Part shown: positions 1 through 47,044 of the stretch, in pieces | How the letters are laid out: each line of letters starts with the position of its first letter | Position numbering within the stretch: the stretch's first letter is position 1 | Made by a program: the position numbers and the translations under genes | NCBI GenBank assembly: GCA_027067575.1 | Contig: JAMOVQ010000142.1 | Coordinates: 7,127-71,126 of the forward strand | DNA from: Thermoanaerobaculia bacterium | GTDB lineage: Bacteria > Acidobacteriota > Thermoanaerobaculia > Thermoanaerobaculales > Sulfomarinibacteraceae | Reading direction: 5' to 3' | Length of the DNA: 64,000 nucleotides | Notes under the pieces: generated by a model | Databases searched by the model: none | What the model was told of the DNA's origin: nothing | The model's input: the letters and a program-made list of their open reading frames with translations, nothing else

Positions 1-484
1 CCAGGGTCGAGGGACCGGCCATGAACGCGGCCTGGGAGAAGGCGATCCCGCTGCCCGCCGTGGCCACCGCGCCGCCGAGGGCGGAGGAACCCCGGAACCC
101 GAGACGCCTCAGGAGGTGCCAGGTCCCCGCGCCCAGAAGGATGTGGTGCAGGAGCAGGAAGAGGGCGAGGGCGACCGGGGGCTCGAACAGGAGGAACAGC
201 GCCGTGAACGGGTAGAGCGCCATGGTGTTCGGGTTGCCGGCCAGCGCCGTTCCGCCGAGGGTCAGGGGGTCCCAGAGCGGGAGGTGCCCCGCGCCGACGG
301 TCCGGGCCCACAACAGCCGCCACCCCAGTTGATGCGACCCGATATCCCGGAGAAACAGCGTCTTCCCTCCGAGGAGCCCCGGGGCGTAGACGGCCACGAG
401 AAGGCCGACGCACGCCACGGTGATCCAGGGAACCGACCGTTCCGGACATCCTTTCCGGGATCCGTTCACCGGAACATGGTACAT
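1..484 (-). CDS. YfhO-like polytopic membrane protein, N-terminal part only (gene continues past the left edge)
   Basis: Absent from the ORF track because no stop lies in the window. The reverse frame from ATG 484 (alternative GTG 469) reads MYHVPVNGSRKGCPERSVPWITVACVGLLVAVYAPGLLGGKTLFLRDIGSHQLGWRLLWARTVGAGHLPLWDPLTLGGTALAGNPNTMALYPFTALFLLF... with no stop down to base 1. It has hydrophobic helices and the same PLxNP...G.P..ANP-type motif as the 4899..6851 product. The YfhO assignment is from memory of that family. Confidence 0.45.
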   Translation of the reverse strand, partial: MYHVPVNGSRKGCPERSVPWITVACVGLLVAVYAPGLLGGKTLFLRDIGSHQLGWRLLWARTVGAGHLPLWDPLTLGGTALAGNPNTMALYPFTALFLLFEPPVALALFLLLHHILLGAGTWHLLRRLGFRGSSALGGAVATAGSGIAFSQAAFMAGPSTL

Positions 485-492
485 CTCTTGCT
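477..492 (+). promoter_or_regulatory. Candidate sigma-54 (-24/-12) promoter upstream of pseudopilin gene 1
   Basis: TGGTAC-atctc-TTGCT has correct GG-N10-GC spacing and two mismatches to TGGCACG-N4-TTGCW at less conserved positions. The GC element lies only about 15 nt before ATG 506, which implies a very short or leaderless mRNA. Confidence 0.35.
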
Positions 493-505
493 GGAACCTT
501 CCCCG

Positions 506-958
506 ATGATACGGCACGAGGGTGGATTCACGCTGATCGAGTTGCTGGTCGTGGTGGCGATCATCGGCATCCTGGCCGCGGTGGCCGTCGCGAACCTCGT
601 CGGTGCCGTCCAACGGGGGCGGCAGAGCCGGACCATGGCCGACATGCGGATCGCGGCGCTGGCCATCGAAGCGTACGAGACCGACCTTTCGGCGTTCCCC
701 CGGGGCTCCGGCACGCTCGAGTCTCTCGCTCCGTACCTGGAACCCACGTACATCAAGAAGGTTCCGGTCAGCGATGGATGGAACCGGCCGCTTCTCTACG
801 ACGGATCGGCGAAGAGCTACACCCTCCTCTCGTGCGGAGGGAACGGCACGGTCGACGCCCCCTGGGGACACGGCCCCACCACGGGGTTCCAGGAAGACAT
901 CGTCTTCGTCGACGGGCAGTTCTTGCAGTGGCCGGAGGGGCTCCAGACGGAAAACTGA
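506..958 (+). CDS. Prepilin-type N-terminal cleavage/methylation protein, GspG-like pseudopilin (150 aa)
   Basis: Internal ATG of track ORF 116..958. The product starts MIRHEGG|FTLIELLVVVAIIGILAAVAVANL, a short leader ending in G, then F-T-L-I-E and a hydrophobic helix. This is followed by RGRQSRTMADMRIAALAIEAYETDLSAFP, which resembles the GspG helix. Paralogous to 1079..1528. Confidence 0.8.
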   Translation: MIRHEGGFTLIELLVVVAIIGILAAVAVANLVGAVQRGRQSRTMADMRIAALAIEAYETDLSAFPRGSGTLESLAPYLEPTYIKKVPVSDGWNRPLLYDGSAKSYTLLSCGGNGTVDAPWGHGPTTGFQEDIVFVDGQFLQWPEGLQTEN

Positions 959-1030
959 CGCAGGACGTCCACACGATCCCCTTCAAGTGACACAGCACGT
1001 CAGATCCTGGGCCGCCCATCTTCATCAAGT

Positions 1031-1046
1031 TGGCACGCGCCTTGCT
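1031..1046 (+). promoter_or_regulatory. Sigma-54 (-24/-12) promoter upstream of pseudopilin gene 2
   Basis: TGGCACG-cgcc-TTGCT matches the TGGCACG-N4-TTGCW consensus exactly. AAAGGAGG (1064..1071) and ATG 1079 follow. Confidence 0.5.
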
Positions 1047-1078
1047 TAGATCCGAGTCGACGAAAGGAGGCCTGTGTT

Positions 1079-1528
1079 ATGAGGAAAGAAAGAGGATTCA
1101 CACTGATCGAGCTGCTGATCGTCGTGGCGATCATCGGCATCATCGCGGCCATCGCCATCCCGAACCTGCTGAACGCCATCAACCGCGGCCGGCAGAAGAG
1201 GACCATGGCGGACATGCGCACCATCGGCACGGCGATCGAGGAGTACTCGGTGGACTACAGCTTCTACCCGAAAGGCGTCGATACCATCACGGCGCTCGTC
1301 AATTATCTGGAACCGACCTACATCAAGAAGGTGGTCCGGAACGATGGCTGGAACAACCCGTTCGATATCGATATCGATACGAGTGGTGCGGACTACACCA
1401 TCATCTCCTACGGGCGGAACCGTACATCCGACGGTGTCAACTTGGGAGATCGTACTACGAGTTTCGATGCGGACATTGCTTTCTCCTCGGGTAGTTTTGT
1501 CCAGTGGCCAGAGGGCGTGCAGAACTAG
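1079..1528 (+). CDS. Prepilin-type N-terminal cleavage/methylation protein, GspG-like pseudopilin paralog (149 aa)
   Basis: MRKERG|FTLIELLIVVAIIGIIAAIAIPNL prepilin signature with a strong SD. The C-terminus FSSGSFVQWPEGVQN parallels FVDGQFLQWPEGLQTEN of the upstream paralog. Locally lower GC than its neighbours. Confidence 0.85.
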   Translation: MRKERGFTLIELLIVVAIIGIIAAIAIPNLLNAINRGRQKRTMADMRTIGTAIEEYSVDYSFYPKGVDTITALVNYLEPTYIKKVVRNDGWNNPFDIDIDTSGADYTIISYGRNRTSDGVNLGDRTTSFDADIAFSSGSFVQWPEGVQN

Positions 1529-1543
1529 TGACCGGTTCTTCGA

Positions 1544-3160
1544 ATGTTTCGATGGCGGCGGAACATCTTGTTCCGCCGCTTTTTCTTGTATCATCGGCCG
1601 ATGGGGCTGATGGTTCTCTCGGTTGCCATACTCTCCGCCTGGTTTCCTCCGGACAGCTTCCCCCTGTCTGGTCCCCTGGTCGGTGCGGGGCTCTTGATGG
1701 CCGCGGCGGGCCTTCGAACGCTGCCCTGGGCCAAGGGGTACGAGAGAATGGTCGGATCCACCGTACCGTTTCTGGGACTTCTGATCGTCGTTTCCGCCGC
1801 CTCCGGATGGTATCGCACCGGGCTCATCGAGGGCGTCCTCCTCTGTGGCAGCGCCATGACCCTGGGGCTCGCAGCATGGCAGTCCGTCGATCGAAAGCAG
1901 CTCGATCACCTCGCTCTGTTCGTTTCCCTTCTCGGATGCTGGGCCGTCGCCCAGGTGCTGTTCGGTTTCGATGCGTCGATCGCGGTGGCAAGCCGCTTGC
2001 CGAATGGTTTTCGGGAGCTCGCGACGGCTCGCCTGGCAAGCCGGCGAGCTTTTGCGGGACTCGCACTCCCCGGCCATCTCGCCGTGGTCCTGGTCTCGGT
2101 GCTCCCGATGCTTCTCGCAGGACTCAAAGCCGGTTCACGACGACGTTGGTTCTGGGGAGTTCTCGTCATCATCGACCTTGGCGGGATCCTGGCGACTCGC
2201 TCCGTCATGGGGTTCTTCCTGGCCATCCTTGTCACCTTCTTGTCCTGGGGGCGACTGCACCTGACCCACCTCGCCTGGATGGCCGCTGCTGCTCTCATGG
2301 CGATCACGTTGATCGTCTCTCTCAGGGGGGACCTCCGAACCCTCACACCGCTCCACCTCCGGATGGACAACTGGCGCACCGCGCTGTGGGTCTGGGAACA
2401 ATCCCCCTTGCTCGGAGTGGGCCCCGGGGGATACGGTCAGGCGGCTCAAGGCATTCCTCATCCCGTTAAATCTGAATCCGCTTACGCGCACAACCTGCCA
2501 CTTCAGGCTCTCGCGGAGCTGGGGCCGACAGGGTTCGTGTTGTCGTTGATCTTCCTGGGCTGGGTCGGCCGGACGGTCCGACGGCTATGGCGAGACGATC
2601 GGGCCCTTGCGCTCTCGGTGGCGGTGTTACCGGTCCATTCCATCGTGGACTTCGCAATCCTCCGGCCCGGGCCCCTCCTCGTATGGTCCGTGCTCGCCGG
2701 TGTGGCATTTCGTGAGAGTCGACCGTCTCTCAGCGTGCCGCTGGGCAGGGTGGGGCGGCGAGTCCTGATCTACGGCACCCTGCTCGGTCTCATCACGATC
2801 ACGTTCCAGTCGGTCTCCGTGCTCACGGAGGAGGTTGCCGAGGCCAACAGCGATGCGGACCTGGCGGCACGGTCCGTGGTTCTGGCCCCGTGGCGTGTCC
2901 GCCCACGATTGACATTAGCGTCGATCGTGCTCCAATCACGGGAGCGGGGAAACCGTGTAGCCGAGGCACTCCATGCAGTCCACGGCGGGCTCCGGATCAC
3001 ACCCCGCTCCGCCGCTTTCGAGCTCACTGCGGCGCAGCTGGAACTGGTTTCGGACGATCCGCTCCAGGCAATGGTTCACGTCCGACGGGCCTGTCACAAC
3101 CGCCCGGGGTGGAAACCTGCCCAGACGCTGTGGAGAACGCTCGCTCAGGAGGCCAGGTGA
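1544..3160 (+). CDS. O-antigen ligase family (Wzy_C-type) polytopic membrane protein
   Basis: Multiple TM helices. The periplasmic-loop motif region reads RMDNWRTALWVWEQSPLLGVGPGGYG...SAYAHNLPLQALAELG, as in WaaL/PglL/PilO-type ligases. The start is uncertain (ATG 1544, or ATG 1601 giving MGLMVLSV). Confidence 0.72.
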   Translation: MFRWRRNILFRRFFLYHRPMGLMVLSVAILSAWFPPDSFPLSGPLVGAGLLMAAAGLRTLPWAKGYERMVGSTVPFLGLLIVVSAASGWYRTGLIEGVLLCGSAMTLGLAAWQSVDRKQLDHLALFVSLLGCWAVAQVLFGFDASIAVASRLPNGFRELATARLASRRAFAGLALPGHLAVVLVSVLPMLLAGLKAGSRRRWFWGVLVIIDLGGILATRSVMGFFLAILVTFLSWGRLHLTHLAWMAAAALMAITLIVSLRGDLRTLTPLHLRMDNWRTALWVWEQSPLLGVGPGGYGQAAQGIPHPVKSESAYAHNLPLQALAELGPTGFVLSLIFLGWVGRTVRRLWRDDRALALSVAVLPVHSIVDFAILRPGPLLVWSVLAGVAFRESRPSLSVPLGRVGRRVLIYGTLLGLITITFQSVSVLTEEVAEANSDADLAARSVVLAPWRVRPRLTLASIVLQSRERGNRVAEALHAVHGGLRITPRSAAFELTAAQLELVSDDPLQAMVHVRRACHNRPGWKPAQTLWRTLAQEAR

Positions 3161-4902
3161 TCCTGCTGGCTGCTGTCTGGATCGGCCTTCTTGGATCGAT
3201 GTGGGCAGCTGGAGGCGCGTTCTATCCTCTCCCGGCTACTCTTGCCGGTGGTGTTGCTGCCGTCCTCTCCGGCATGACGCAGGTCGGCCGGCGGTCCAGC
3301 GTGCAGTTTGAGCTGACGGAACGACTCGTGCTCGCCTGGATCATCCTCGGAGTGTTCCAGGTCACCATCGGGGGAGGTGATCCTTTCGAGGGGTTCAAAC
3401 GGCTCGGCTGGTGGTTGGTAGCGCTATCGGCATGGGTGGCTGCGCGCAGCTTGAAGCGCGTCCCTGGCGAGACACCTCTCTTTCTTGGTCTTGGTGTGGT
3501 CTTGATCCTGGGCGTTCTTGGCGAGGCCTGGGGTCTGGGGTTGCCCCGTGCGGGGGGACTGTTCGAGAACCCCAATCTCGCCGCCATGTTGATGGTTCCG
3601 CTCGTTCCGCTCGCCCTGTCTCGAGAATGGCCGCGGCCCCTGCAATGGGGAATCGGCCTTCTCCTGGTCATGGGTGTCGGGGCCACCGGATCCCGGGCTG
3701 GGTTGCTCGCTCTGGCCGGTCTCGGCATGCTGCTCTTGCCGCGGAAGCTTCGGATTGCCCTCGTGGTGGCCGTTGCAGCACTCCTGATGTGGCGTCTCCT
3801 CGCCGTCTCCGATCCGCTCGCGTGGCGCCGCCCAGCGATCTGGCGCGCCTCCCTTCACGTTGTCGCCGAACACCCCCTTCTTGGGAGCACACCCGGGGCC
3901 TACGATGAGGCAGTGCTTCGCTTTCGCCCACCGGAACCCACGCTGATCGCGCGCTGGACAAAGTATCCAGGAAACGCTGAAAGCACCATCATCCAGGTGC
4001 TTGCGGAGACGGGTGTCCTGGGGTTCAGCCTTCTGTTTGTCGCGGTCGTGGCGTTTTGGAGATCCCTCAAGAACGTTCCTTCCCGACGTCTCCTCCATGC
4101 CACCGTCGTCGCCATGGGAATCTTTGCAACCGTCCACGATCTCCTGGGCCTTCCGGTCGTCCTGTGGTCATGGGCATGGTTTCTGGGACGCCTCGCCTCC
4201 GACGGGGAGCCGGAGCGGTCTGCCGGCGCCAGGAGTAAGAATCCGATGTGCCTTGCCGGTGGACTTGCCGCCGCCCTTCTCCTGATCTGGAGTATGGTTC
4301 TTCCCGAGATCGCCAGGTACCGGTTCGCTGCGGAAGATCCAAGCCGAGGGAAGATCGATCCTCTCTGGGCCGTGCCGTGGAGGGTGACGGCCGAACAGAT
4401 CCTTCACGAGGATTCTTGGAATCGAGGTCGTGCCATTGTGGCGGCGGATGCTGCCGAACGGGCGGTGGCGCTCCACCCAGCGGCTCAGCGGGAGTGGCTG
4501 GTTCTCGGACAGGTCCTGACCCAGGCATATCTCCAAGTCACACCGTATCCGGCAACGGCACGCAGGGCAGCAAGAGCGTACAAGCAGGCGTGCCTGATCG
4601 ATCCTCATGCGCCAGTTGGTTGGCTCCTGGCGGGTCAGCTGGCACGTTCGGTGGGAGATCTCGATCGGGCCATTGCACTGGTCACACGGGCAGTGACCGA
4701 AGAACCGCATTATGTCAAGGGGTGGCTGGCCCTCGCGCGCCTTGAGCTCGACGCAGGTCGGGTGGACGCGGCCCGACGTGCATTCGCCCGGGCTCGAAGA
4801 TCCCGAGAACTTTCCCGGGGACGGATTCTGAGCGCGTATGAGAGGTCTCTCCTGGACGCTCCGCGCTGGCAGTTCCGGCAGCTCGAGGAACAGATCCCAT
4901 GA
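3157..4902 (+). CDS. O-antigen ligase family (Wzy_C-type) membrane protein with C-terminal TPR-like repeats
   Basis: GTG 3157 overlaps the upstream stop (GTGA). TM-rich N-terminal region with GVGATGSRAGLLAL...AIWRASLHVVAEHPLLGSTPGAYD...NAESTIIQVLAETG. The C-terminal helical repeats (HPAAQREWLVLGQVL..., DPHAPVGWLLAGQLARSVGDLDRAIALVTRAV, EPHYVKGWLALARLELDAGR) look TPR-like. The upstream 267 nt of the track ORF is the wrong-frame tail of the previous gene. Confidence 0.7.
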   Translation: MILLAAVWIGLLGSMWAAGGAFYPLPATLAGGVAAVLSGMTQVGRRSSVQFELTERLVLAWIILGVFQVTIGGGDPFEGFKRLGWWLVALSAWVAARSLKRVPGETPLFLGLGVVLILGVLGEAWGLGLPRAGGLFENPNLAAMLMVPLVPLALSREWPRPLQWGIGLLLVMGVGATGSRAGLLALAGLGMLLLPRKLRIALVVAVAALLMWRLLAVSDPLAWRRPAIWRASLHVVAEHPLLGSTPGAYDEAVLRFRPPEPTLIARWTKYPGNAESTIIQVLAETGVLGFSLLFVAVVAFWRSLKNVPSRRLLHATVVAMGIFATVHDLLGLPVVLWSWAWFLGRLASDGEPERSAGARSKNPMCLAGGLAAALLLIWSMVLPEIARYRFAAEDPSRGKIDPLWAVPWRVTAEQILHEDSWNRGRAIVAADAAERAVALHPAAQREWLVLGQVLTQAYLQVTPYPATARRAARAYKQACLIDPHAPVGWLLAGQLARSVGDLDRAIALVTRAVTEEPHYVKGWLALARLELDAGRVDAARRAFARARRSRELSRGRILSAYERSLLDAPRWQFRQLEEQIP

Positions 4903-6851
4903 CGGCCATGCGACGCCCGCTCCGGCTCTGGTGGATCCCCTTCCTGCTGCTCTTCCTGCCTCTGTTCGGCCGCGTCCCCGCCCATCCGGACCTGCCCGGC
5001 TACTTTGCGCCGATCCGGGAGTGGACCGCGGCCTCCGTGCTTCGTGGAACGGTGCCACTCCTCAACCCGTTGAACGGGTGCGGGGAGCCATGGTTCGCCA
5101 ACCCGCAGACGGCACCCCTGGGGCCGCAGAGCTGGCCCTGGCTGCTCCTCCCCGCGCCCTGGGCCCTGACGGCGGAGATCGCGCTCCATCTGGCGTGGCT
5201 CGCCCTGGGGGCCGGCATTCTGGCGCGCCGGCTCGGGGCCGACCGGGTCACCACCGCGGCGGCGGAGGCCGCCGCGTTCCTCGCCCCACCGGTCCTCACC
5301 CTGACCGGCGTGCTCAACAACCTCGAGACCCTCGCCTGGGCGCCGTGGATCGTGCTGGCGTCACGGACCAGGCGTCCGGAGCTGACCCTGCCTGTGGCGG
5401 TGGCCGCCGGGTGGTTCGGAGCGGCTCCGGTGCTCTGGGCTCTGATCCTCGCGGCGGCGCTCCTGACGTCACCGCGAAGGACACGGGCCGCCGCCGGAAT
5501 CGTCCTGGGGATCGGGCTTGCCGCCGTGCAGATCGGACCGTTCCTCGGATGGGTCGCCGGGGGGGACCGTGGCAGAAGCGCGGTTCCCGAGGCGATGGTG
5601 GCGGCGGCGGTCCCGCCGGAGGGCTGGCTCTCCCTCGTCGTGCCCGGGGCCGTCGCCAGCGCCTGGGCCGGGACCGTGTTCCTCGGTGGTGCGCTCCTTG
5701 CCGCTGCCGCAGGCGCCGTTCGCCGGTTTCCCGGGATCGCGGCCGCCGCCGTGGCGCTGGCGGGCCTCGCCACGCTGCCTGCTGTTGGGGGCGGGGCGCT
5801 CTTCCTCGCCCTGACCAGCGGCCTCGTCCGGTATCCGGCCCGGTTCGCCGCCGCCGCCGGCCTTCTCGTCCTCGTGCTGGCCCTCGCCGGCCTCGCACCC
5901 TGGGTCCGGGGCGAGGGCCGCGCCGCCACGGCGGTCGCAGGGGGCCTGACGCTCCTCCTGGCCGGGAGAGTCCCTGACACGGGGACGGTGGGCACGGCGG
6001 TCCTCGGCGGCCTGCTCCTGGCCGCCGCCGTCTGGCCGGGCCGCCGCGGGTTGCGGTGGGCCGCCCTCGGTGTCACCGCCGTCCTTTTCGTGGGCCTCGG
6101 CATCGGCGAGCTCCGCCCCCGGCCGGTGGACGTGCTGCACCCTCGCGGGTGGGAGGAGGCCAGGAGACCGGGCAGGATCTGGAGCCCACTGCCTGGGCCG
6201 GGCCAGCGCCGTTTCCTCGCCCGGAACCCCGGTGCCATGCCGCTCTGGCCGGTCGGGTACACGAACCTCCTGACCGGGGTCCGCCGGGTCGGCACGGAGG
6301 CGCCGGTGACCCTGGCGGCCGTCTCCAGGCTCGAGCGGGACGCCTCGACCGGGCCGGCGGCCCGCTGGTCCGTCGACAGCGCCGCAGGACGGTGGATCGT
6401 CCTGCGGAGGCCATCCCGGACAGGGGGACTCGTTCCCGTGGCCCGCCGTGAGGGGCTCTGGCTTCACGAGAACCCTCACGCGTGGCCCCTGGTCGTGGCC
6501 ACGCGTGAGGTGATCACGGACGGGATGAAGCCCCGCCCGGTTCCGGGGCTTGTCGCCTTCGCCCTGAGGGAGGAAACGGTCACGGTCCACACCCTGCTCG
6601 ACGGGGCCGGGGTCGTCGTGGCCTCCCTGGCGCCGTTGCCGGGCTGGGCCTGGAGGCTCGACGGTAGGCCCATCACTTCGTTCCGGGGACCGTCCGTGTT
6701 ACAACAGGTGCAGGTTCCACCGGGACCGCACCGGCTTGAGGGACGGTATACGGATCCGCTCCTCAAACCGGGCGCCGTGGTCTCGGCCCTCTCGGCCATG
6801 ATGATCCTGGGAATCGCCTTCGGACCCGAAAGACCGGAGCGCCGGACGTGA
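4899..6851 (+). CDS. YfhO-like polytopic membrane protein (putative GT-C type glycosyltransferase)
   Basis: ATGA overlap with the upstream stop. There are about 12 or more predicted TM segments, then a soluble region and a terminal TM. The N-terminal motif GTVPLLNPLNGCGEPWFANPQT resembles the YfhO family and the partial gene at 1..484. Confidence 0.55.
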   Translation: MTAMRRPLRLWWIPFLLLFLPLFGRVPAHPDLPGYFAPIREWTAASVLRGTVPLLNPLNGCGEPWFANPQTAPLGPQSWPWLLLPAPWALTAEIALHLAWLALGAGILARRLGADRVTTAAAEAAAFLAPPVLTLTGVLNNLETLAWAPWIVLASRTRRPELTLPVAVAAGWFGAAPVLWALILAAALLTSPRRTRAAAGIVLGIGLAAVQIGPFLGWVAGGDRGRSAVPEAMVAAAVPPEGWLSLVVPGAVASAWAGTVFLGGALLAAAAGAVRRFPGIAAAAVALAGLATLPAVGGGALFLALTSGLVRYPARFAAAAGLLVLVLALAGLAPWVRGEGRAATAVAGGLTLLLAGRVPDTGTVGTAVLGGLLLAAAVWPGRRGLRWAALGVTAVLFVGLGIGELRPRPVDVLHPRGWEEARRPGRIWSPLPGPGQRRFLARNPGAMPLWPVGYTNLLTGVRRVGTEAPVTLAAVSRLERDASTGPAARWSVDSAAGRWIVLRRPSRTGGLVPVARREGLWLHENPHAWPLVVATREVITDGMKPRPVPGLVAFALREETVTVHTLLDGAGVVVASLAPLPGWAWRLDGRPITSFRGPSVLQQVQVPPGPHRLEGRYTDPLLKPGAVVSALSAMMILGIAFGPERPERRT

Positions 6852-9235
6852 CCGCGCTCCTGCTGTCGCTGTTCTTCCTCTCCGGAGCCTCCTCTCTCGT
6901 CGGGGAGGTCGTGTGGATGCGTCTGCTCGGGCTCGTGGTCGGAAACTCCATGTGGGCAGCGTCCGCCGTGGTCACCGCATGGATGGCGGGCCTCGCAGCC
7001 GGCGCCTGGCTCGGTGGCCGGCTCGCCCGGACGGTTCGCCACCATCTTCGTCTCTACGCCGCCGCCGAGACGGTGGTCGCCCTGTTCTACCTTGCGACGC
7101 TGTCGCTCCTTCCCCGCCTGGAGAGCCTTGCCGCAGGGCTGACCCCGGACCTGTCGGGACACCTCCTGGCTGGACTGAGCGGCCGGTTCCTCCTCTCCGT
7201 CGGTGTGCTCCTCCTGCCCACGACGGCCATGGGGGTCACGCTCCCCCTGCTCGTCGAACGGCTGCGGGGGAACGTCCTCGCCGAACGCGTCGCAGGGCTG
7301 TACGGTGTCAACACGCTGGGAGCGGTGGCGGGGGTGCTGGTCACCGCACACCTCCTCCTGCCACGTCTCGGCGAATCCGGGGCGCTGGCCACCGCGGCGC
7401 TGGCCTGCCTCACCGTCGCGGTGGCCGCCGTACTCCTCGAGGGGAGGCTCCCTCGACCAGCCGGGTCGGCCGCGCCCGTGCGCTCCCGTCCATCGGGCGG
7501 TCCGCTCCGTGCCTACCTGGCGCTGGTTGCGGCCATGGGGTTCGGTGCGCTGGCCGTCGAGATCGTCTGGGTCCGGGTGCTGACGCTCCATCTGGGGTCC
7601 AGGGTGTACGCCTTCGCCCTCATGCTCGCGGTCTACCTCCTGGGAATCGGCATCGGGAGCATCCTGGTCGGCGCCACATCCCGCCACACCGGCGAACCCC
7701 GGCGGTTCCTGGCATGGCTCCAGGCCGGCGTGGCGGTGGCGATCCTGGTGAACCTCGCCGTGCTTGCACGGTTCCAGCCACTCCTGAGCTGGCTCACGGA
7801 GATGCTCCACCTCCACAGGTCGTTCGCGAACGTGCAGGTGATCCAATTTCTCGCGGTGGCCGCCGCGTTCCTTCCGGTGACGACGCTGCTGGGCGCCTCG
7901 TTCCCCCTGGCCGTGGCCGCAGACCCAGGCGTTGGGAGCGGCGGGGAACACACGGGGCGGGTGGCCGCCGCGAACACCCTCGGCGCGATCCTGGGATCCG
8001 TGGCGACGCCCGCCGTGCTCGTCCCCGTCCTGGGCGCCTCGCGATCGTTGCTCCTTCTTGCACTGCTCTCCACCCTGATCGCCCTCACCCTCGGGGGCCG
8101 GCGGGTGGCCGTCCTCATCGCCGGGACGGTCCTCGCCATCGCGGCGGTCTGGATCACGATGCCCCGGGACGCCATACTCCGGGCGGCTCTCGAGGACGGG
8201 GGAGCGTCGGAGGTCGTGGCCCTCGAGGAGAGCCTGACCGCCACGGTGATCGTGAGGCGCTACCACGACGCCCGGGGTGCCTGGTACTCGCTGGAGCTCA
8301 ACGGCGTCAACGTCGCGGGAACCTCGCCGGAGCTGCTCGCCGTCCAGCAGCTCCAGGGACAGATCCCCCTGCTCGAGGCCCGTGACCCGAAGCGGGTGCT
8401 GCACATCGGCTTCGGATCGGGCGGGACGTGCTGGGCCGTCTCGCGCCATCCGGTGGAACGGATCGACGTCGTGGAGATCGCACCCGAGGTGCTCCGGGTC
8501 TCGGACCGCTACTTCGCCGACATCAACCATCACGTCCTCGCGGATCCCAGGGTTCACACCATCATCAACGACGGCCGCAACTACCTCCTGGCGACGGAGA
8601 ACCGGTACGACGTCATCCTCTCTGACTCGATCCACCCCGTGTACGCCGGGAACAGCACCCTCTACACGCTGGAGTACTTCCGGCTGTGCCGGGAACACCT
8701 GGAGCCCGGCGGGGTGGTCTCCATGTGGCTGCCGCTGTACTCGCTCTCGAGGGACAGCTACCTGCGGATCCTCTCCGCGTTCCACCGGGTGTTCCCACGG
8801 ACCGTGGTCTGGTACGACATCGGGGTGCTCAACGAGTTCACTATCGTGACGGGGATGGTGGAGCCGGGACCGGTGTCCCTGCGGTGGCGGGCGCTCGGTG
8901 ACCCGCGACTCCTGGAGTCGCTCCGTATCGCACGAATCCAGGGCGCTGCCGATCTCGAGGCCCGCCTGCTGCTCGACCCGGTGCGGGTTGCCCTGACCTG
9001 CCGCGACGTCCCGCCTCACGTGGACGACCTGCCCGTGGTCGAGTACCGCTCCGGCCGGCTCCTCGACCGCGAGCGGTCATGGCTCGCCAACTTCCGGATG
9101 CTGGCGGCACGGCGCACACGACGCGATCCGTTCGCGGCCGCACCGGTCCCGTGGCCCGAGGCCGCCGCCCTTCGCGACCGGGCGCTGGAGGTCCACTTCC
9201 GTCAGCTCGGGGCGAGGATCCGAGCCTCCCGGTAG
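6848..9235 (+). CDS. Membrane-fused spermidine-synthase-like (class I SAM-dependent transferase fold) protein
   Basis: GTGA overlap with the upstream stop. The N-terminal region of about 440 aa is polytopic. The C-terminal region reads VLHIGFGSGGTCWAV...IDVVEIAPEV...INDGRNYL...YDVILSDSIHP...GGVVSMWLP, typical of the spermidine/spermine synthase fold. Confidence 0.7.
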   Translation: MTALLLSLFFLSGASSLVGEVVWMRLLGLVVGNSMWAASAVVTAWMAGLAAGAWLGGRLARTVRHHLRLYAAAETVVALFYLATLSLLPRLESLAAGLTPDLSGHLLAGLSGRFLLSVGVLLLPTTAMGVTLPLLVERLRGNVLAERVAGLYGVNTLGAVAGVLVTAHLLLPRLGESGALATAALACLTVAVAAVLLEGRLPRPAGSAAPVRSRPSGGPLRAYLALVAAMGFGALAVEIVWVRVLTLHLGSRVYAFALMLAVYLLGIGIGSILVGATSRHTGEPRRFLAWLQAGVAVAILVNLAVLARFQPLLSWLTEMLHLHRSFANVQVIQFLAVAAAFLPVTTLLGASFPLAVAADPGVGSGGEHTGRVAAANTLGAILGSVATPAVLVPVLGASRSLLLLALLSTLIALTLGGRRVAVLIAGTVLAIAAVWITMPRDAILRAALEDGGASEVVALEESLTATVIVRRYHDARGAWYSLELNGVNVAGTSPELLAVQQLQGQIPLLEARDPKRVLHIGFGSGGTCWAVSRHPVERIDVVEIAPEVLRVSDRYFADINHHVLADPRVHTIINDGRNYLLATENRYDVILSDSIHPVYAGNSTLYTLEYFRLCREHLEPGGVVSMWLPLYSLSRDSYLRILSAFHRVFPRTVVWYDIGVLNEFTIVTGMVEPGPVSLRWRALGDPRLLESLRIARIQGAADLEARLLLDPVRVALTCRDVPPHVDDLPVVEYRSGRLLDRERSWLANFRMLAARRTRRDPFAAAPVPWPEAAALRDRALEVHFRQLGARIRASR

Positions 9236-10290
9236 ACAGCGACGAGCGCCTCGGCCACGCGGTCCCACGAGCAGGCTGCCACCCGAGCGCGGCCCGCGTC
9301 GCGGAGACGGCTCGCGAGCGCTTGATCGCTGACGATCCGGCGCACGGCCTCGGCCCACGCCGCCGGGGGGGCCGAGGCGGGGACGTAGAGTGCGGCGCCG
9401 CCCCCGGCCTCGGGGAGCGAGGAGCACGCCGTGACCACGGGGACCGCCCCGTGGGCCATCGCCTCGAGGACCGGCAGTCCGAACCCTTCCCACAGCGAGG
9501 GGAGCACGAGGACTTGCGCCGTCCCATACAGCCGCGCCAACGCCCCGTCGTCCACCGTTCCCGCCACACGGACCCGTTCCGGGCACCGCTCGGCAGCCTC
9601 ACGGATCGCAGGGTGCCCCGACGCGCCACCGGCCACCACGAGGGGCGGCAGGTCCCGCGCCCGGGACCCGCACCACAGACGGGCGAGCAGGTCCACGCGC
9701 TTGTGGGGATCCGGGCCACCCACGTAAAGGACGTGATCCCGGCGTTCGGCCGGCTCTCCCCCGGTGGGCGCCGCCACGCCGTTGGGGACGACGCGGACCC
9801 GGTCCGGCGGGATGCCGAGGCAGTGCACCGCGTCGTGGGCCGTGGACCTGGAGACGGCATGGACCAGCGTCGCCCGCCGGTACGTCTCCAGCCGCTGGAC
9901 CGCACGCCGCCGGACCCTCCCGCTGGGGATCGCGTCCGGATAACGGAGCGGGGTCACGTCGTGGAGCGTCGCCACCACCGGCAAGCCCAGCCCCGGCGGA
10001 ACCCCCCAGGCGGGGAGGTGGAGGACATCGACCGGGTGGCGATCGAGCACCCGCCGCCACACCGGCCGGTCGAACAGGAACGCCCCCCGCGGCGGGTGAG
10101 GAACCCGGACGATCCGCTCCTGGAGACCTTCGAGTGACGGGCCGAGCGGCGCGCCCCGCGGGACGAAGACCACGAGGTCAACGTCGGAGCGACCCGCGAA
10201 GGCGCACACGTGCTCCCGCGCGACCCGGCCAAGACCGCGGTCCGGATCGAGCACCGCCGCGCGGGCGTCGTAGCCGACCGTCAGCACCAT
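9202..10290 (-). CDS. Glycosyltransferase family 4 (GT-B, group 1)
   Basis: C-terminal LPSLWEGFGLPVLEAMAHGAVPVVT...E motif (EX7E-type) and an N-terminal Rossmann half. Convergent with the previous gene, with a 34-nt overlap. Confidence 0.8.
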   Translation of the reverse strand: MVLTVGYDARAAVLDPDRGLGRVAREHVCAFAGRSDVDLVVFVPRGAPLGPSLEGLQERIVRVPHPPRGAFLFDRPVWRRVLDRHPVDVLHLPAWGVPPGLGLPVVATLHDVTPLRYPDAIPSGRVRRRAVQRLETYRRATLVHAVSRSTAHDAVHCLGIPPDRVRVVPNGVAAPTGGEPAERRDHVLYVGGPDPHKRVDLLARLWCGSRARDLPPLVVAGGASGHPAIREAAERCPERVRVAGTVDDGALARLYGTAQVLVLPSLWEGFGLPVLEAMAHGAVPVVTACSSLPEAGGGAALYVPASAPPAAWAEAVRRIVSDQALASRLRDAGRARVAACSWDRVAEALVAVYREARILAPS

Positions 10291-12027: not shown

Positions 12028-14505
12028 TCACTGGGCCACGGGCATGACGTAGGTCGGGTCGCCGGTCCGGTCGTCCACCACCGAGGCGTAGCAGGTCCAG
12101 TGGTCGGGGTTGCCGGACTCCAGCCGGACCACGATCCATGCGTTCTCCACCGACACGCCGCCGAGGCCCATGTCCGTGAAGACGTCGTTGACCTGGCGGA
12201 AGGCGGCACCCGTCGTGTACGACCGGGTCGCCAGCACACTGCCCGAGGGTGACACGATGGAGACGCCGTAGCGCACCTGGCCCGCACTCGTCTGGACGAG
12301 CCCGAGGTTGGTGTGGAACCGGCCGGACACCGAATGGACCAGCGGCAGGGCGTACGACGCCGGCGGCGAACCGGCGAGCGGGATCGCCGGGATCCCCTGG
12401 CCGAACGTCGCCCCGTCCGTGCCGAGGTTGTAGGTCCGGGTCGTCACCACGATCCCCGGTCCGTCCGCCTCAACCAGGAGCAGGCCGCTGGTGGGGTTCA
12501 TGGGCAGGAGCGGATCGTCCAGGTACAGCATCCTCGAGGGGCCGAGGGTAACCGGTTCCGCCAGCACCGTCCCGGGCCACGACTGGCCGCCGGCGACGTA
12601 GTGGACGGTGACCGACCGGTCCGACGATCCGCTGTTGACCACGGCGAGCTCCGTCTTCCAGTTGGACGTCCCGTACCCCGGCGCCGAGGCTGCGGCGGGG
12701 ACGAGCCAGCGGGTCGCGCCGCCACCGCCCGCCCCAACGGTCAGCACGGCCGTGCAGACGTTGTTGGTCTCGTTGGTCTCCGGAACCGTGCCGGATGAGT
12801 CCACCGCCGTCCCGATGAAGTACCGGCCGTCCGGGAGACTCGCGGGCAGGACCAGGTCCATGGAGTCGGTGGAGTCGTACCCCGCCGGCCACCCTCCGCC
12901 GTCCATTGTGGCGAGGGGAGTGTCCCCAGCGTCGAACACGGCGTCGGTGGAGAGAAACGCCTCCCAGACGAACGCCGGGGCAGCCGTCGCCCCCTGGTTC
13001 CTCCAGCGGAAGCTCAGCCGGACGGTGTCCCCGGCGTTCGCATGGTCGGGGGAGACCGAGCACTCCGTTGCCGTCAGGTCGGGAAGGGAGGATGTGGCGA
13101 GGACCGTCAGCGGTGCCGCGACGGCGTTGTTTCCCTCCTCCGTCTCGGCTACGAGGTTCCCGTCGTCGACGGCGACCCCCAGCCAGTAACTCCCCTGGGC
13201 GACGTCCGCGGGGATCGTCACCCGCTGGCCCCACATGGCATCGCCGAACGTGTCGCCACCCGAGAGGGATCCGCTCTCCTGGAAGGTCGCGATCCGGCGG
13301 TCCGACCCGTCGATGGTCGCGTCGGTGGAGAGGTAGACGCCGGTGGAGAACGCCGTTCCCACCGCCCCGCTCCCCCCGACGTGAGCCGAGTACCGGAGAT
13401 CGAGCGCGCCGCCGGCCGCGACGGTGGACGGTGCGGGATCGGCGGAGTCCGCGACGAGGTCGATCCCGGATCCCGAGTCGTAGTACAGCGTGATGGACCA
13501 CTCATCGACGTACGCCGTCTCCACGGCGTACCGGTTGCATCCGCCGATGATGTAGTCGGTGTTCACCCGGCTCCCGTCGTACCGGTGCAAGTGGACGTCG
13601 ACCTGATGGTAGACCGTGTCGCCGGACGAGGTGCCTCCGTACAGGTCGATGGGGTCCGACCAGGCCATTCCCGGCGCGTCCCTGTGCCACATGGCCGCCA
13701 GAAACCGCGAGATGTCGACCGAGTGGTAGACGGTCCACTCGTCCTCGAACTCCGTGACCACCGCATCAGCCGGGGCCGTGGTGATGCTGATCGACGTTCC
13801 GTAGTACACGCCGTCACTGCACAGGTGGTCGGAGAAATCACCGTTCCAACCGTTGCTCCCCGTGACCGAATCCTTGTACGGCGGAACAGCAGCAGAGCGC
13901 ACCGAGGCGTGGATCGCCGACCTTGCCTCCTCCGCCTGGCGCAGCACCGCCTCAAGAGCCGGGTCGCTCTCACCGATCCGCCACCACCCCTCGTGGCCCT
14001 TCTCCAGCGTCGGAAACCGGGCCGCCGCCTCGGGGTCGAGCCGGACGGCGACGCACCGCTCCACGACACCCGCAGACGCCGGACCGATCCCGATCGCACC
14101 CGAGGGATCCCTTCGGATCGAGCGGTTCGCTTGGAGCTCCCGGTCCGGCCGCGATCCCTGCCGGCGGACCGTGATCCGAGACCTCGCTCCGGGGAAAAGC
14201 CCCGACAGGTCGAGAACCAGCCCGACATCGCCCGCCACGGGGACACGCGCCCTCCACACGGCGCCTTCCTTCCGCCACCACAGGTCGGCCCCGCCGGGGG
14301 CCTCCGCCCCGGCCGGCAGAAGGAGCTCCACGGTGTCCCCCGCCTCGAGCTCCGGCAGCCGCACGATCACGGCGTCCGCCGAGGTCACGCTCCCGACCTC
14401 CGGCGCCACGGGCCTCCTGACGGCGGACGCCGCCGGCAGGACGGTCGCCACAACGAACGACAACACGACGAGACGAACGGTCCAGCGGTGCGCGATCATC
14501 GACAT
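12028..14505 (-). CDS. Secreted multidomain protein: signal peptide, unassigned N-terminal region, two CARDB-like domains, C-terminal shared ~230-aa domain
   Basis: Start at ATG 14505 (MSMIAHRWTVRLVVLSFVVATVLPAASA) behind GGAAGGGGG. CARDB-like segments: DL..DSADPAPSTVAAGGALDLRYSAHVGG...GNNA and PDLTATECSVSPDHANAGDTVRLSFRWRNQGA...TNETNNV. The C-terminal 229 aa (12031..12717) is homologous to domains in the 16946, 57124 and 59210 genes. Confidence 0.7.
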   Translation of the reverse strand: MSMIAHRWTVRLVVLSFVVATVLPAASAVRRPVAPEVGSVTSADAVIVRLPELEAGDTVELLLPAGAEAPGGADLWWRKEGAVWRARVPVAGDVGLVLDLSGLFPGARSRITVRRQGSRPDRELQANRSIRRDPSGAIGIGPASAGVVERCVAVRLDPEAAARFPTLEKGHEGWWRIGESDPALEAVLRQAEEARSAIHASVRSAAVPPYKDSVTGSNGWNGDFSDHLCSDGVYYGTSISITTAPADAVVTEFEDEWTVYHSVDISRFLAAMWHRDAPGMAWSDPIDLYGGTSSGDTVYHQVDVHLHRYDGSRVNTDYIIGGCNRYAVETAYVDEWSITLYYDSGSGIDLVADSADPAPSTVAAGGALDLRYSAHVGGSGAVGTAFSTGVYLSTDATIDGSDRRIATFQESGSLSGGDTFGDAMWGQRVTIPADVAQGSYWLGVAVDDGNLVAETEEGNNAVAAPLTVLATSSLPDLTATECSVSPDHANAGDTVRLSFRWRNQGATAAPAFVWEAFLSTDAVFDAGDTPLATMDGGGWPAGYDSTDSMDLVLPASLPDGRYFIGTAVDSSGTVPETNETNNVCTAVLTVGAGGGGATRWLVPAAASAPGYGTSNWKTELAVVNSGSSDRSVTVHYVAGGQSWPGTVLAEPVTLGPSRMLYLDDPLLPMNPTSGLLLVEADGPGIVVTTRTYNLGTDGATFGQGIPAIPLAGSPPASYALPLVHSVSGRFHTNLGLVQTSAGQVRYGVSIVSPSGSVLATRSYTTGAAFRQVNDVFTDMGLGGVSVENAWIVVRLESGNPDHWTCYASVVDDRTGDPTYVMPVAQ

Positions 14506-14639
14506 TGTCCCCCTTCCACGGGCTGTGACTCCCCGACTATGCCCCACCCCGCCTCCCGGCCGCAACCCCGGCGGCGGCGAAACCCGGCCGGAAACGGAAA
14601 ACCCGCCGGCGGGACAGCGACCCCACCTCCTGCGCGACG

Positions 14640-14840
14640 GAGGCGAGCGAAGCGGCCCGCCGGAACCCCCCGGCAGGCGAGCGAAGCGACGCCGCTCCTC
14701 ACCGCCGGGGACAGACGAAGAATCAAACAGCGTCCCTTCCCCCGAGACGGGCAACGCGAGACTCGGCGTCGGCCCCCGAGAAGGCCAGGAAACAGACAGT
14801 GTCCCCTTCCCCCAAGGCGAGCGAAGCGACGCCGTCCCCC
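14640..14840. repeat. Intergenic modular repeats: GGCGAGCGAAGCG(A/G)C x3 and ACAG(C/T)GTCCC(C)TTCCCCC x2
   Basis: GGCGAGCGAAGCG occurs at 14642, 14676 and 14816; the last two are identical 18-mers 140 bp apart. ACAGCGTCCCTTCCCCC lies near 14727 and ACAGTGTCCCCTTCCCCC near 14796. The reverse complement of the latter shares GAAGGGGACACT with the 18.5-kb repeat. Confidence 0.6.
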
Positions 14841-14859
14841 GTCCCCCCCGCCCTCGGAA

Positions 14860-15040
14860 GATCCGGGGAGGCGGGGCGGGTTCGTCGCGAGGGGTCCGAG
14901 ACGGGGTGAGCCGTGGATGCACGCGCCGGGTGAGCGAGCGAGGCGTAGCCCGGCTACGCCGCAGCGAGCGAGCCCAAGCGGGCGCCGCGGATCGCCCCGT
15001 ATCGGACCCCGCAGCAGAACCCGCCCCGCCTCCCCGGATC
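14860..15040. repeat. 181-bp imperfect palindromic element with 24-bp perfect terminal inverted repeats (MITE/REP-like or long terminator hairpin)
   Basis: GATCCGGGGAGGCGGGGCGGGTTC (14860..14883) is the exact reverse complement of GAACCCGCCCCGCCTCCCCGGATC (15017..15040). The arms between them stay largely complementary (GGGGTCCGA-ACGGGG...). The centre is the hairpin GGCGTAG-cccgg-CTACGCC. The right arm overlaps the glnA stop codon (15039..15041). Confidence 0.6.
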
Positions 15041-16370
15041 AATAGCGATCGAGGTACCGCTCGCGCTCCCACGGGTGGATCACCTGGATGTACTCCGCCC
15101 ACTCCTTCCGCTTGTTGTAGAGGAAGTGCTGGAAGATGTGCTCGCCGAGCGCCTCGCGCAGCACGGCGTCCCGCTCCAGGAAATCCAGCGCCTCCGCGAG
15201 GTTGGCCGGGAGCTGCCGGATCCTCAGGCGGCGCTTCTCACGCTCGCTCATGGTGAAGATGTTCTTGTTCACCGGCTCGCCGCAGTCCATGCCGGCCTCG
15301 ATCCCGTCGAGGCCGGAGGCCATCATGACGGCCAGCGCCAGGTACGGGTTGCACGACGGGTCCGGGACGCGGACCTCGCACCGGGTCCCCTCGCCGCGCC
15401 GGGCCGGGACCCGGATCATCGGCGAGCGGTTCTTCTCGGACCAGGCGACGTTGACCGGCGCCTCGAAGCCGGGAACGAGCCGCTTGTACGAGTTGACGAG
15501 CGGGTTCGTGACGGCGACGAACGCCCGGGCGTGGGTCAGCAGGCCCCCGATGTAGTTGCGGGCGACCTTCGAGAGCTCCCATTCGCCGTCGGGGTCCCAG
15601 AACGCGTTCTCGCCGTCCAGGGTGAACAGCGACTGGTGGGTGTGCATCCCCGAGCCGTTCATCCCCGCCAGCGGCTTGGGCATGAAGGTGGCGTGGAGCC
15701 CGTGCATCAGCGCGACCTTCTTGACCACGAACCGGAACGTGACGATGTTGTCCGCCGTGGTCACGGCGTCGGCGTACTTGAAATCGATCTCGTGCTGGCC
15801 CGGCGCCACCTCGTGGTGCGCCGCCTCCACCTCGTACCCCATCGCCTCGAGCACCAGCGTGATGTCCCGCCGCGCTTCCTCGCCCTGGTCCCGCGGGCTG
15901 AGGTCGAAGTACCCGCCCGTGTCGTGGGTCTGGGGGATGGGCTCCCCCTCGCCGTTGCGCTGGAACAGGAAGAACTCGGCCTCCGGCCCGGCCATCATCC
16001 GGTACCCCATGGAACGGGCCCGCTCCACCACCCGCTTGAGCGCGGTCCGTGGGCAGCCCGGGAACGGCGTCCCGTCCGGGTTGGCGATGTCGCAGATCAG
16101 CCGCCCCACCCGGCCGTGCTCGGTCTCCCAAGGGAAGACGCCGAAGGTGTCGAGGTCGGGCACGAGCAGCATGTCCGACTCCTCGATCCGTGTGAACCCC
16201 TCGATGGACGAGCCATCGAACATGATCTGTCCGTCCAGCGCCTTCTCGAACTGGCTCCGGGGCACCTCGACGTTCTTGATGATCCCGTCGATGTCCGTGA
16301 ACTGCAGCCTGAGGAAATGGACCCGCTCCTCCTTGCAGCGGGCCAGGATGTCTGGGATGCGATGGGGCAT
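15039..16370 (-). CDS. glnA: Glutamine synthetase, type I
   Basis: MPHRIPDILARCKEERVHFLRLQFTDIDGIIKNVEVP...FDGSSIEGF...GPEAEFFLF...NGSGMHTHQSL...SYKRLVPGFEAP...NRSPMIRVP is a full-length GS-I signature. ATG 16370 lies 7 nt after AGGAGG; the track start 16376 is an upstream TTG. Confidence 0.95.
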   Translation of the reverse strand: MPHRIPDILARCKEERVHFLRLQFTDIDGIIKNVEVPRSQFEKALDGQIMFDGSSIEGFTRIEESDMLLVPDLDTFGVFPWETEHGRVGRLICDIANPDGTPFPGCPRTALKRVVERARSMGYRMMAGPEAEFFLFQRNGEGEPIPQTHDTGGYFDLSPRDQGEEARRDITLVLEAMGYEVEAAHHEVAPGQHEIDFKYADAVTTADNIVTFRFVVKKVALMHGLHATFMPKPLAGMNGSGMHTHQSLFTLDGENAFWDPDGEWELSKVARNYIGGLLTHARAFVAVTNPLVNSYKRLVPGFEAPVNVAWSEKNRSPMIRVPARRGEGTRCEVRVPDPSCNPYLALAVMMASGLDGIEAGMDCGEPVNKNIFTMSEREKRRLRIRQLPANLAEALDFLERDAVLREALGEHIFQHFLYNKRKEWAEYIQVIHPWERERYLDRY

Positions 16371-42131: not shown

Positions 42132-47037
<4,906 letters not shown>

Positions 47038-47044
47038 CGGAAGG

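Follow-up and report, generated by a model that had tools for sequence, protein, structure and literature searches.

The 64-kb window analysed here (64,000 nucleotides of contig JAMOVQ010000142.1, from a Thermoanaerobaculia bacterium of the Acidobacteriota) contains at its left end (positions 1–10290) a group of pilin, Wzy_C-family and glycosyltransferase genes that on balance probably constitutes a type IV pilin O-glycosylation locus, a variant of the pilA-tfpO and pilA-tfpW theme. The sequence shows a set of genes, their folds and conserved residues, promoter and terminator signals, and a linkage retained in relatives; glycosylation is the most economical reading of these, because a protein resembling PglL and TfpO (WzyC1) is encoded 3′ of a pilin gene and appears transcriptionally coupled to it, GT-C enzymes are encoded alongside, and TfpW provides a precedent. 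The genes named in an earlier sequence-only reading of this DNA are all found where that reading had placed them. Two prepilin genes (pil1 and pil2) are followed in the same direction by two Wzy_C genes (WzyC1 and WzyC2), a gene for a YfhO-like membrane protein (P650) and one for a membrane-fused spermidine synthase-like protein (SpdS); a second YfhO-like gene (Left779) diverges at the left edge and a GT4 glycosyltransferase gene converges from the right. The 4-nt start/stop overlaps reported to run through the set are present at the WzyC1/WzyC2, WzyC2/P650 and P650/SpdS junctions, but pil2 and WzyC1 are separated by a 72-nt gap that holds a terminator. The glycosylation proposal made in that reading withstands scrutiny of the Wzy_C catalytic loop and of the linked pilins, and requires changes with regard to WzyC2, the type of pilin, and the exporter.

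The genes pil1 (506–958, rightwards, 150 amino acids) and pil2 (1079–1528, rightwards, 149 amino acids) encode paralogous GspG-like prepilins sharing 55% identity, as had been proposed. Both have class III signal peptides (MIRHEGG/FTLIELLVVVAIIG in pil1 and MRKERG/FTLIELLIVVAIIG in pil2, the latter beginning MRKERG/FTLIELL) with the features of the type IV pilin/pseudopilin superfamily: Gly at −1, Phe at +1, Glu at +5 and a hydrophobic N-terminal helix. Each is above the Pfam cut-offs for N_methyl (40.5 bits for pil2 and 35.6 bits for pil1; cut-off 21.2) and for T2SSG (26.8 bits for pil1). The conserved major pilin-like protein pil2 also matches GspG, the major pseudopilin of the type II secretion system (T2SS), in the PDB (5wda; residues 7–123, E 3e-10) and the Thermus narrow-pilus subunit PilA5 (E 1.7e-5). 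Against the NCBIfam GspG equivalog TIGR01710 the pilins score 63.0 and 75.8 bits, under its cut-off of 88.85; they are not part of a gsp operon, and no T2SS genes were found in the window. The pseudopilin label given earlier is thus probably misplaced: we judge that these are not T2SS pseudopilins, because pil2 has the sigma-54 promoter and terminator of a major type IV pilin gene, and distant relatives lie beside PilT-like ATPases.

An alignment of 30 members of the pilin family shows that the first ~40 residues are nearly constant and that two motifs near the C-terminus, D.DI and G.F..[WYF]PEG[VIL]Q, are invariant (the second reads G.F..WPEG.Q in pil2). A few residues before D.DI there is an invariant Thr, itself preceded by a Ser/Thr-rich loop of variable length, and the residues from the final motif Gln onward vary (QN, QTEN, QTD, QRE, QDDG). 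Glycosylation at the C-terminal residue of the pilin, in the manner of TfpO and TfpM, was considered and dropped since these last residues are not conserved. The pil1 gene has a narrow distribution. Among the genome loci compared (contig loci are given L numbers, and W denotes the present window) it occurs only in a sub-clade consisting of W, L002, L024 and L026, and always together with Left779.

Judged by its sequence signals, pil2 forms a transcription unit of its own, bounded by a putative sigma-54 promoter and a strong terminator that are each conserved in relatives. The predicted promoter element TGGCACGCGCCTTGCT (1031–1046, rightwards) has the −24 GG and −12 GC dinucleotides and the spacing of pilA-type sigma-54 promoters, is located 48 nt 5′ of the pil2 ATG, and is the sole match to the sigma-54 pattern in the window (0.01 expected). 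An element 44–54 nt 5′ of the pil2-type gene is present in 30/32 cases in related loci, and these pilin sites make up 30 of the 32 pattern matches across 1.35 Mb of those loci; with a looser pattern, 49 of 55 matches in 816 kb of metagenome loci are situated before pilin genes. A candidate −24/−12 element for pil1, TGGTACATCTCTTGCT (477–492, rightwards; identified by consensus match only), is one mismatch from the pil2 element and lies partly in the 21-nt divergent gap and partly in the 5′ end of Left779; it is found 5′ of pil1-type genes in the window, L002 and L024. No terminator accompanies pil1.

The predicted intrinsic terminator of pil2 (1554–1589, rightwards) has a 12-bp stem, a 3-nt loop and a TTTTTCTTG tail (minimum free energy −28.6 kcal/mol, z −2.5). 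Terminator-like hairpins with T-runs follow 24 of 26 pil2-type genes; their stem sequences differ between loci, with compensatory changes. Because the terminator lies in the pil2–WzyC1 gap, the WzyC1 start at 1601 is favoured over an ATG at 1544, and only ~20 nt then lie between the terminator and the WzyC1 ATG. This leaves no room for a promoter, and the simplest view is that the WzyC genes rely on transcripts reading through from the pilin promoter. Major type IV pilin (pilA) genes typically lie between a sigma-54 promoter and a terminator, and in pilA-pilO a sigma-54 pilin promoter is likewise combined with a terminator that limits the downstream gene.

WzyC1 (1601–3160, rightwards) is a PglL-like Wzy_C protein and a candidate pilin O-oligosaccharyltransferase. 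It scores 28.6 bits against Pfam Wzy_C, just below the cut-off of 31.7, and all 22 of the homologues obtained in a word-indexed protein search, which are few and 27–43% identical, carry PF04932 in precomputed annotation. Wzy_C enzymes are recognised by the domain together with two Arg residues and a His in the periplasmic loop (R215, R288 and H338 in Escherichia coli WaaL; R224, R298 and H349 in PglL), and the corresponding R242, R254 and H297 are invariant in the WzyC1 family, as are N257, P269, G272, G274, E306 and D350. A search of the PDB with the single WzyC1 sequence returned nothing and the family profile was needed to reach PglL. With that profile, the entry 9rmk ('Oligosaccharyltransferase', 610 amino acids) is matched at E 2.4e-10 over a region that begins at the catalytic loop and takes in the C-terminal helical domain, compared with E 0.07 for WaaL 7tpg. 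The residue numbering fits 9rmk being PglL or a close homologue, and paired positions include H297/H349, P269, G272 and G274 with P313, G316 and G318, H346/H400 and D350/E404. R224, R298 and H349 are essential in PglL, and G316, G318, H400 and E404 are PglL-specific (Schulz et al., PMC3643930). No equivalent of PglL P406 is present in WzyC1, the region of 9rmk containing Q178 and N180 does not align with the profile, and no match of WzyC1 to Pfam PglL_A was returned. The only membrane-domain NCBIfam model touched by the family is TfpM (12 of 22 members, E ~1e-5; ~24 bits against a cut-off of 600). At the level of sequence, WzyC1 resembles the PglL oligosaccharyltransferase more than the WaaL ligase, with the catalytic residues retained.

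The AlphaFold2 model of WzyC1 (predicted local distance difference test, pLDDT, 89.8) has a WaaL-like membrane domain followed by a TPR-like helical domain, and ~13 transmembrane (TM) helices are predicted. From the helix count and the positive charges preceding the last TM helix, we infer that the C-terminal domain would be periplasmic. A TPR-like tail had been noted for one of the two Wzy_C proteins; it is clear in WzyC2, but WzyC1 also has one.

WzyC2 (3157–4902, rightwards) is a divergent Wzy_C paralogue with a TPR tail, scoring above the Pfam Wzy_C cut-off (38.3 bits) and matching TPR_19. WzyC1 and WzyC2 are ancient paralogues with 23% identity whose homology is clear only in profile-profile comparison (hhalign over 459 columns, probability 99.5%, E 2e-22), in which AHNLPLE of WzyC1 is aligned to AESTPL of WzyC2. 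Both therefore belong to the O-antigen-ligase family as first described, but only WzyC1 appears catalytically canonical: R213 and R225 are kept in WzyC2, and the position of the catalytic His is occupied by an invariant Glu (E275, in AEST) in 22/22 family members. WzyC2 also has an invariant NPN where WzyC1 reads PGH, and the paralogue profile alignment suggests that these tripeptides are the equivalents of PglL Q178/N180. The membrane domain of WzyC2 has no PDB sequence match even at E 10, and PDB searches with the full protein are dominated by TPR proteins. WzyC2 may act as a partner without catalytic activity, or its chemistry may be altered.

Downstream of WzyC2 is P650 (4899–6851, rightwards), a polytopic, YfhO-like protein of 650 amino acids and probable GT-C glycosyltransferase. 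Left779 (1–484, leftwards), the 5′ part of a second gene for a YfhO-like, probable GT-C membrane glycosyltransferase, is cut by the window edge; its full frame on L001, a 67-kb metagenome copy of the source contig (ENA ERZ27262658 k141_815644) in which the window begins at position 1855, is L001:2–2338 on the reverse strand and encodes at least 779 amino acids. Neither protein matches Pfam YfhO by direct scan, and direct Pfam and NCBIfam scans give nothing useful beyond a marginal C-terminal PgfM2 match (E 0.005). The YfhO-like label in the sequence-only reading thus has no direct family match and holds only at the level of remote homology, for which family scans, structure prediction and profile-profile comparison were needed. 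Pfam YfhO (PF09586) is matched by 9 of 19 P650-family members (best E 2.4e-10), and a P650 homologue with 41% identity is named 'YfhO family protein' by NCBI. The AlphaFold2 model of P650 (pLDDT 88, predicted TM-score 0.87) has the GT-C enzymes ArnT, AftD, AftA, AglB and STT3 as its top PDB matches. P650 has 11 predicted TM helices as well as a periplasmic domain rich in beta structure and a TM helix at the C-terminus. The Left779 and P650 families are homologous over 615 columns (hhalign probability 100%, E 3.4e-40); an RD motif aligns between them, and the Asp following the first TM helix is invariant (D31 in P650, D47 in Left779).

The association of pilin and Wzy_C genes is conserved. A genome scan with the WzyC1 alignment produced 33 loci, nearly all from Acidobacteriota metagenome-assembled genomes labelled Thermoanaerobaculia, Thermoanaerobaculales, Sulfomarinibacteraceae or 'Holophagae'; two are labelled otherwise (L010 'Deltaproteobacteria' and L037 'archaeon'). 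A pil2-type pilin gene directly precedes WzyC1 in 29/29 of the loci with enough upstream flank to judge, at WzyC1 identities of only 32–42%, and WzyC2 follows WzyC1 wherever the contig continues. The relatives thus show no generic glycan cluster lacking a pilin, which the sequence-only reading had named as an outcome that would count against it. P650 is next in about half of the genome loci. Left779 and pil1 are located between Wzt and pil2 in L002, L024 and L026 and are at the corresponding place in the window, with the divergent pair also occurring in a few metagenome loci (e.g. L069); the sub-clade that gained a second pilin has also gained a second YfhO-like gene beside it.

Upstream of the pilin, the relatives encode a Peripla_BP_6 lipoprotein (lipobox LAGC), an ABC-2 permease (Wzm) and an ATPase with a Wzt_C glycan-binding domain, that is, an ATP-binding cassette (ABC) transporter for glycans. 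By synteny with L002, L024, L026 and L069, this exporter should lie just past the left end of the contig. The LivK/Peripla_BP_6-type lipoprotein gene is always directly before the exporter genes (L002:1453–4671, with equivalents in L003–L040), an unusual pairing of a substrate-binding-protein fold with an exporter. Glycan genes 3′ of WzyC2 are variable and include GT2, GT4, methyltransferase and NeuB genes and a second Wzm/Wzt pair. The second pair is divergent and located a few kb 3′ of WzyC2 in L008, L021 and L022, where it is 28–41% identical to the first; L004 has a second Wzt alone (51% identity). Two ABC-transporter glycan pathways are therefore encoded in one region in these relatives.

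Approached from the pilin, look-ups of three genes with products 61–65% identical to pil2 show Wzy_C next in 3/3, and a metagenome scan yielded 80 loci, which were annotated with family profiles. Where at least 700 nt of downstream sequence was available, Wzy_C follows in 29 of 39 cases for pilins with 57% identity or more, and in one of nine for more distant pilins. A second context is represented by L041 and 22 metagenome loci, with the order YfhO-like, L3_532-like, pilin, WzyC1, WzyC2 and no Wzm/Wzt. The L3_532-like family consists of polytopic proteins of ~530–600 amino acids with no Pfam or NCBIfam match; its genes adjoin the pilin, between pilin and WzyC1 in L003 (8215–9813) and between the YfhO-like gene and pilin in the soil-type context (L041:2149–3960 and many of L052–L109), and the L003 and L041 members share 28% identity over 514 amino acids. 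Distant pilins (52–54% identity) in L119 and L123 adjoin a PilT-like T2SSE ATPase, as is ordinary for type IV pili; a zinc-ribbon gene is also present beside the pilin in L123, and L104 has the same two neighbouring open reading frames (ORFs) by sequence. The pilin–Wzy_C association is strong, occurs in at least two neighbourhoods, and is facultative. Strong but facultative linkage is also the pattern of pilin accessory genes in Pseudomonas.

From these features we infer a pathway with the pilin as acceptor. The GspG-fold prepilin pil2, with its paralogue pil1, would be strongly expressed under the control of its sigma-54 promoter. A small share of transcripts would run on past the terminator into WzyC1-WzyC2-P650-SpdS, such that the modifying enzymes are made alongside the pilin at a lower level through partial read-through. 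The glycan would be assembled on undecaprenyl pyrophosphate by cytoplasmic glycosyltransferases, here GT4, and in the relatives would cross the inner membrane through the Wzm/Wzt exporter encoded just upstream. At the periplasmic face, WzyC1 may then transfer the glycan en bloc to a pilin Ser or Thr while its TPR-like domain binds the pilin. WzyC2, keeping the Arg residues that bind lipid pyrophosphate but with Glu for His, may be a non-canonical partner or a second transferase with a different acceptor, and the YfhO-like P650 and Left779 could add single sugars from undecaprenyl-phosphate (Und-P) donors to the pilin or its glycan. A more elaborate arrangement, which we regard as a long shot, is that WzyC1 and WzyC2 form an obligate two-subunit pilin O-oligosaccharyltransferase that loads full-length ABC-exported polysaccharide onto the sigma-54-controlled pilin, with the pilus serving as a scaffold for polysaccharide display or export. 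It is suggested by the splitting of motifs between the two proteins (the His in WzyC1, the PglL-like NPN in WzyC2) and by the TPR domains in both, and if true would be a route of glycan display not described for any bacterium.

Several observations weigh against pilin glycosylation. WzyC2 does not have the catalytic His. The matches of WzyC1 to PglL and TfpM are weak and far under the family cut-offs, and the top PDB match of its model in the Foldseek copy searched is WaaL 7tpg, with 9rmk absent from that result list. The position of WzyC1 directly 3′ of the pilin is that of TfpO and TfpM, encoded directly 3′ of their cognate pilins, but the acceptor of those enzymes is a C-terminal Ser or Thr of the pilin, and no such residue is conserved in the 30-member alignment. 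Wzm/Wzt, flippase and Und-P-sugar synthase genes are all missing from the window and have to be supplied from the relatives. The conserved order further extends upstream to def, an Fe-S protein, a pyridine-nucleotide oxidoreductase, an SLT transglycosylase and rsmI; since housekeeping genes are included, part of the conservation is plain vertical inheritance. Gene order is therefore down-weighted, and weight is put instead on the second context, the reciprocal scan from the pilin side, and the promoter and terminator layout. In that reciprocal scan, ten of the 39 close-pilin metagenome loci have no Wzy_C downstream by family profiles. Pfam was run on seven of these (all except L079, L083 and L101) and shows unrelated downstream ORFs in L046 (phosphodiesterase), L056 (MacB/FtsX), L091 (PepSY) and L096 (OmpA-family); the ORF in L061 has only a weak PMT_2 match and that in L108 has no Pfam match. 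Wzy_C could lie beyond the sequence covered in L079, which has 750 nt downstream, and in L063. The latter has a group II intron reverse transcriptase/maturase gene (L063:1831–3303) inserted directly 3′ of tandem pilin genes.

The best-placed of the rival explanations, which we nonetheless consider unlikely, is that WzyC1 and WzyC2 are WaaL-type lipid A-core ligases belonging to a conserved O-polysaccharide block, within which the pilin is an independent unit retained by descent. An ABC-transporter pathway requires a ligase, and the series PDF-FeS-PyrRedox-SLT-RsmI-PBP-Wzm-Wzt-pilin-WzyC1-WzyC2 is passed on as a unit in most Thermoanaerobaculia loci, even though some of its genes are functionally unconnected with the block. 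The pilin has its own promoter and terminator, its adjacency to Wzt is kept in L046, L056, L079 and L083 without a Wzy_C downstream by family profiles, and the structural match of WzyC1 to WaaL is in keeping with the same view. However, the WzyC1 profile favours 9rmk strongly over WaaL and the PglL-specific residues are retained, and its large C-terminal TPR-like domain is a trait of TfpO, PglL and TfpW that exceeds the 403-residue solved WaaL. The pilin-WzyC1-WzyC2 triad also recurs in a different context lacking Wzm/Wzt, and the interval from the terminator to WzyC1 is too short for a promoter.

Next in standing, and improbable, is a role of the pilin in polysaccharide secretion, in which a short pilus or pseudopilus, assembled by type IV pilus or T2SS machinery encoded elsewhere, pushes or carries the Wzm/Wzt-exported polymer through a secretin. 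Secretin, assembly ATPase and prepilin peptidase genes were not found among the window genes scanned, in agreement with what had been noted before. Pilus-aided polysaccharide secretion has been proposed for the hps locus of cyanobacteria, which contains pseudopilins. The GspG-like pilin here is embedded between glycan-export and glycan-transfer genes, and secretins of the T2SS and type IV pilus type are reported to be linked to slime secretion (bioRxiv 10.1101/2022.03.08.483542). However, the locus contains a single major-type pilin without minor pseudopilins, and distant family members are found beside PilT-like ATPases. The sigma-54 promoter and terminator are likewise in the manner of pilA, and secretion would leave the PglL-like transferases following the pilin unexplained. 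The weakest rival is that WzyC1 and WzyC2 act as Wzy-type polymerases in making a Wzx/Wzy-dependent polysaccharide. It draws on the inclusion of polymerases as well as ligases in Pfam Wzy_C and on a Wzx-type flippase (Polysacc_synt) a few genes downstream in L002, but is very improbable: neither a flippase nor a chain-length regulator is present in the window or in most related loci, an ABC-transporter pathway, which is the conserved partner, does not need a polymerase, and informative sequence matches are confined to transferases of the PglL and TfpM types.

Pilin glycosylation has well-described counterparts with which the locus can be compared. The tfpO gene and the GT-C gene tfpW are each located directly 3′ of pilA, and without TfpW the pilin is not glycosylated (bioRxiv 10.1101/2020.04.19.049825); pilin-specific oligosaccharyltransferases (OTases), which have been reviewed (PMC9829042), are used as tools for bioconjugate vaccines, and many PglL homologues adjoin pilin genes (Schulz et al. 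2013, PMC3643930). As in pilA-tfpO (pilO) of Pseudomonas aeruginosa group I and the TfpO/TfpM/PglS systems of the Moraxellaceae, a Wzy_C enzyme with a C-terminal periplasmic domain is encoded directly 3′ of the pilin in the same orientation. Unlike the TfpO and TfpM systems, which are gammaproteobacterial, this one is in the Acidobacteriota, the Wzy_C gene is present as two paralogues, of which one encodes Glu in place of His, and the glycan pathway near the locus is of the ABC-transporter (Wzm/Wzt) rather than the Wzx/Wzy type. The pilin pil2 differs from theirs in having a GspG-like globular domain and in the absence of a disulfide-bonded D-region as well as of the conserved C-terminal Ser/Thr. 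Neisseria PglL (PglO), taken to be represented by 9rmk, is the best sequence match of WzyC1 among solved structures, with the equivalents of its Arg, Arg and His and of its PglL-specific residues kept; however, identity is low, the N-terminal half of WzyC1 has no significant alignment, and an NPN-type motif is found only in WzyC2.

The GT-C proteins are comparable to TfpW of P. aeruginosa group IV, also a large membrane enzyme encoded beside a pilin (646 amino acids, against 650 in P650), and P650 and Left779 share with TfpW and the streptococcal YfhO enzymes an acidic residue after the first TM helix. In place of the TPR domain of TfpW, P650 and Left779 end in a beta-rich domain and a terminal TM helix. 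The streptococcal YfhO-family GT-C enzymes PgtC2 and PgfM1 O-glycosylate extracytoplasmic proteins, transferring single sugars from Und-P donors to Ser or Thr (PMC12041528); unlike these, P650 and Left779 fall under the Pfam YfhO threshold, and the window contains no Und-P-sugar synthase or GtrA-type flippase. In its globular domain, Pfam T2SSG match and similarity to 5wda, pil2 is like GspG, but it is below the NCBIfam cut-off, outside a gsp operon, and endowed with its own sigma-54 promoter and terminator; it also has the extra conserved C-terminal motif (G.F..WPEG.Q), and its relatives adjoin PilT-like ATPases. No description of this locus was found in the literature searched (on Thermoanaerobaculia pilins, YfhO with pilin, and pseudopilin glycosylation), which agrees with the remark in the sequence-only reading that the arrangement was not known to be described. 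A pilin gene followed by its glycosylating enzyme is already known; the novelty lies in the phylum, in the GspG fold of the pilin, in a conserved pair of Wzy_C paralogues with His in one and Glu in the other, and in the presence of YfhO-like proteins and an ABC transporter as partners.

The remaining genes of the locus are SpdS and GT4. SpdS (6848–9235, rightwards, 795 amino acids) consists of a polytopic membrane domain of the major facilitator superfamily (MFS) type fused to a spermidine synthase-like domain, as described earlier; it reaches 126.5 bits against NF037959 (cut-off 40) and matches Pfam Spermine_synth at E 4e-24. It occupies the same position, right after WzyC2 or P650, in L024, L026, L030, L040, L044, L047, L069 and L074. 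Compared with Thermus SpeE (1uir), its catalytic domain (8285–8947) has GFGSGG for GGGEG, EIA for DID and DSIHP for DLTDP, which we take to be changes at cofactor- and amine-binding positions, and SpdS may not be an aminopropyltransferase. The GT4 glycosyltransferase gene (9202–10290, leftwards; Pfam Glyco_trans_1_4, Glycos_transf_1 and Glyco_transf_4) overlaps the SpdS gene by 34 nt at its 3′ end and has orthologues in the same position in L002, L024, L026 and L040.

The window as a whole (G+C ~70%) is a chromosomal origin region, since it also contains dnaA, dnaN, recF, gyrB, gyrA, parB, gidA/gidB, yidC and ATP synthase genes. The G+C content at third codon positions is 0.65–0.77 in pil1, pil2, WzyC1 and WzyC2 and 0.85–0.97 in most other window genes, and the segment at 1–4900 differs from its counterpart in L002 in lying on the other side of a PHP-domain gene and in having the reverse orientation to that gene, which suggests a rearrangement or a different evolutionary history of this segment. 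Elsewhere in the window there are genes for a 1024-amino acid CARDB-domain protein (12028–15102) and a large NACHT-domain protein (61165–63999) that runs off the right edge, and several long ORFs without Pfam matches (743, 698 and 466 amino acids; 46847–49078 and 57013–60610).

For the family, proteins annotated as 'type II secretion protein G' in Thermoanaerobaculia are more likely to be major pilins, and the conserved His/Glu pair offers a natural test case for the division of donor and acceptor binding in Wzy_C proteins. Pilin O-glycosylation has been worked out almost wholly in a few proteobacterial pathogens, and the locus, if the assignment is true, extends the process to the Acidobacteriota with a set of enzymes not previously seen together: a PglL-like transferase, its Glu paralogue, one or two YfhO-like GT-C enzymes and, in the relatives, an ABC-transporter pathway. 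Coming from a distant lineage, and with an acceptor pilin that is small and free of cysteine, it would be a useful new source of OTases, which might favour long chains.

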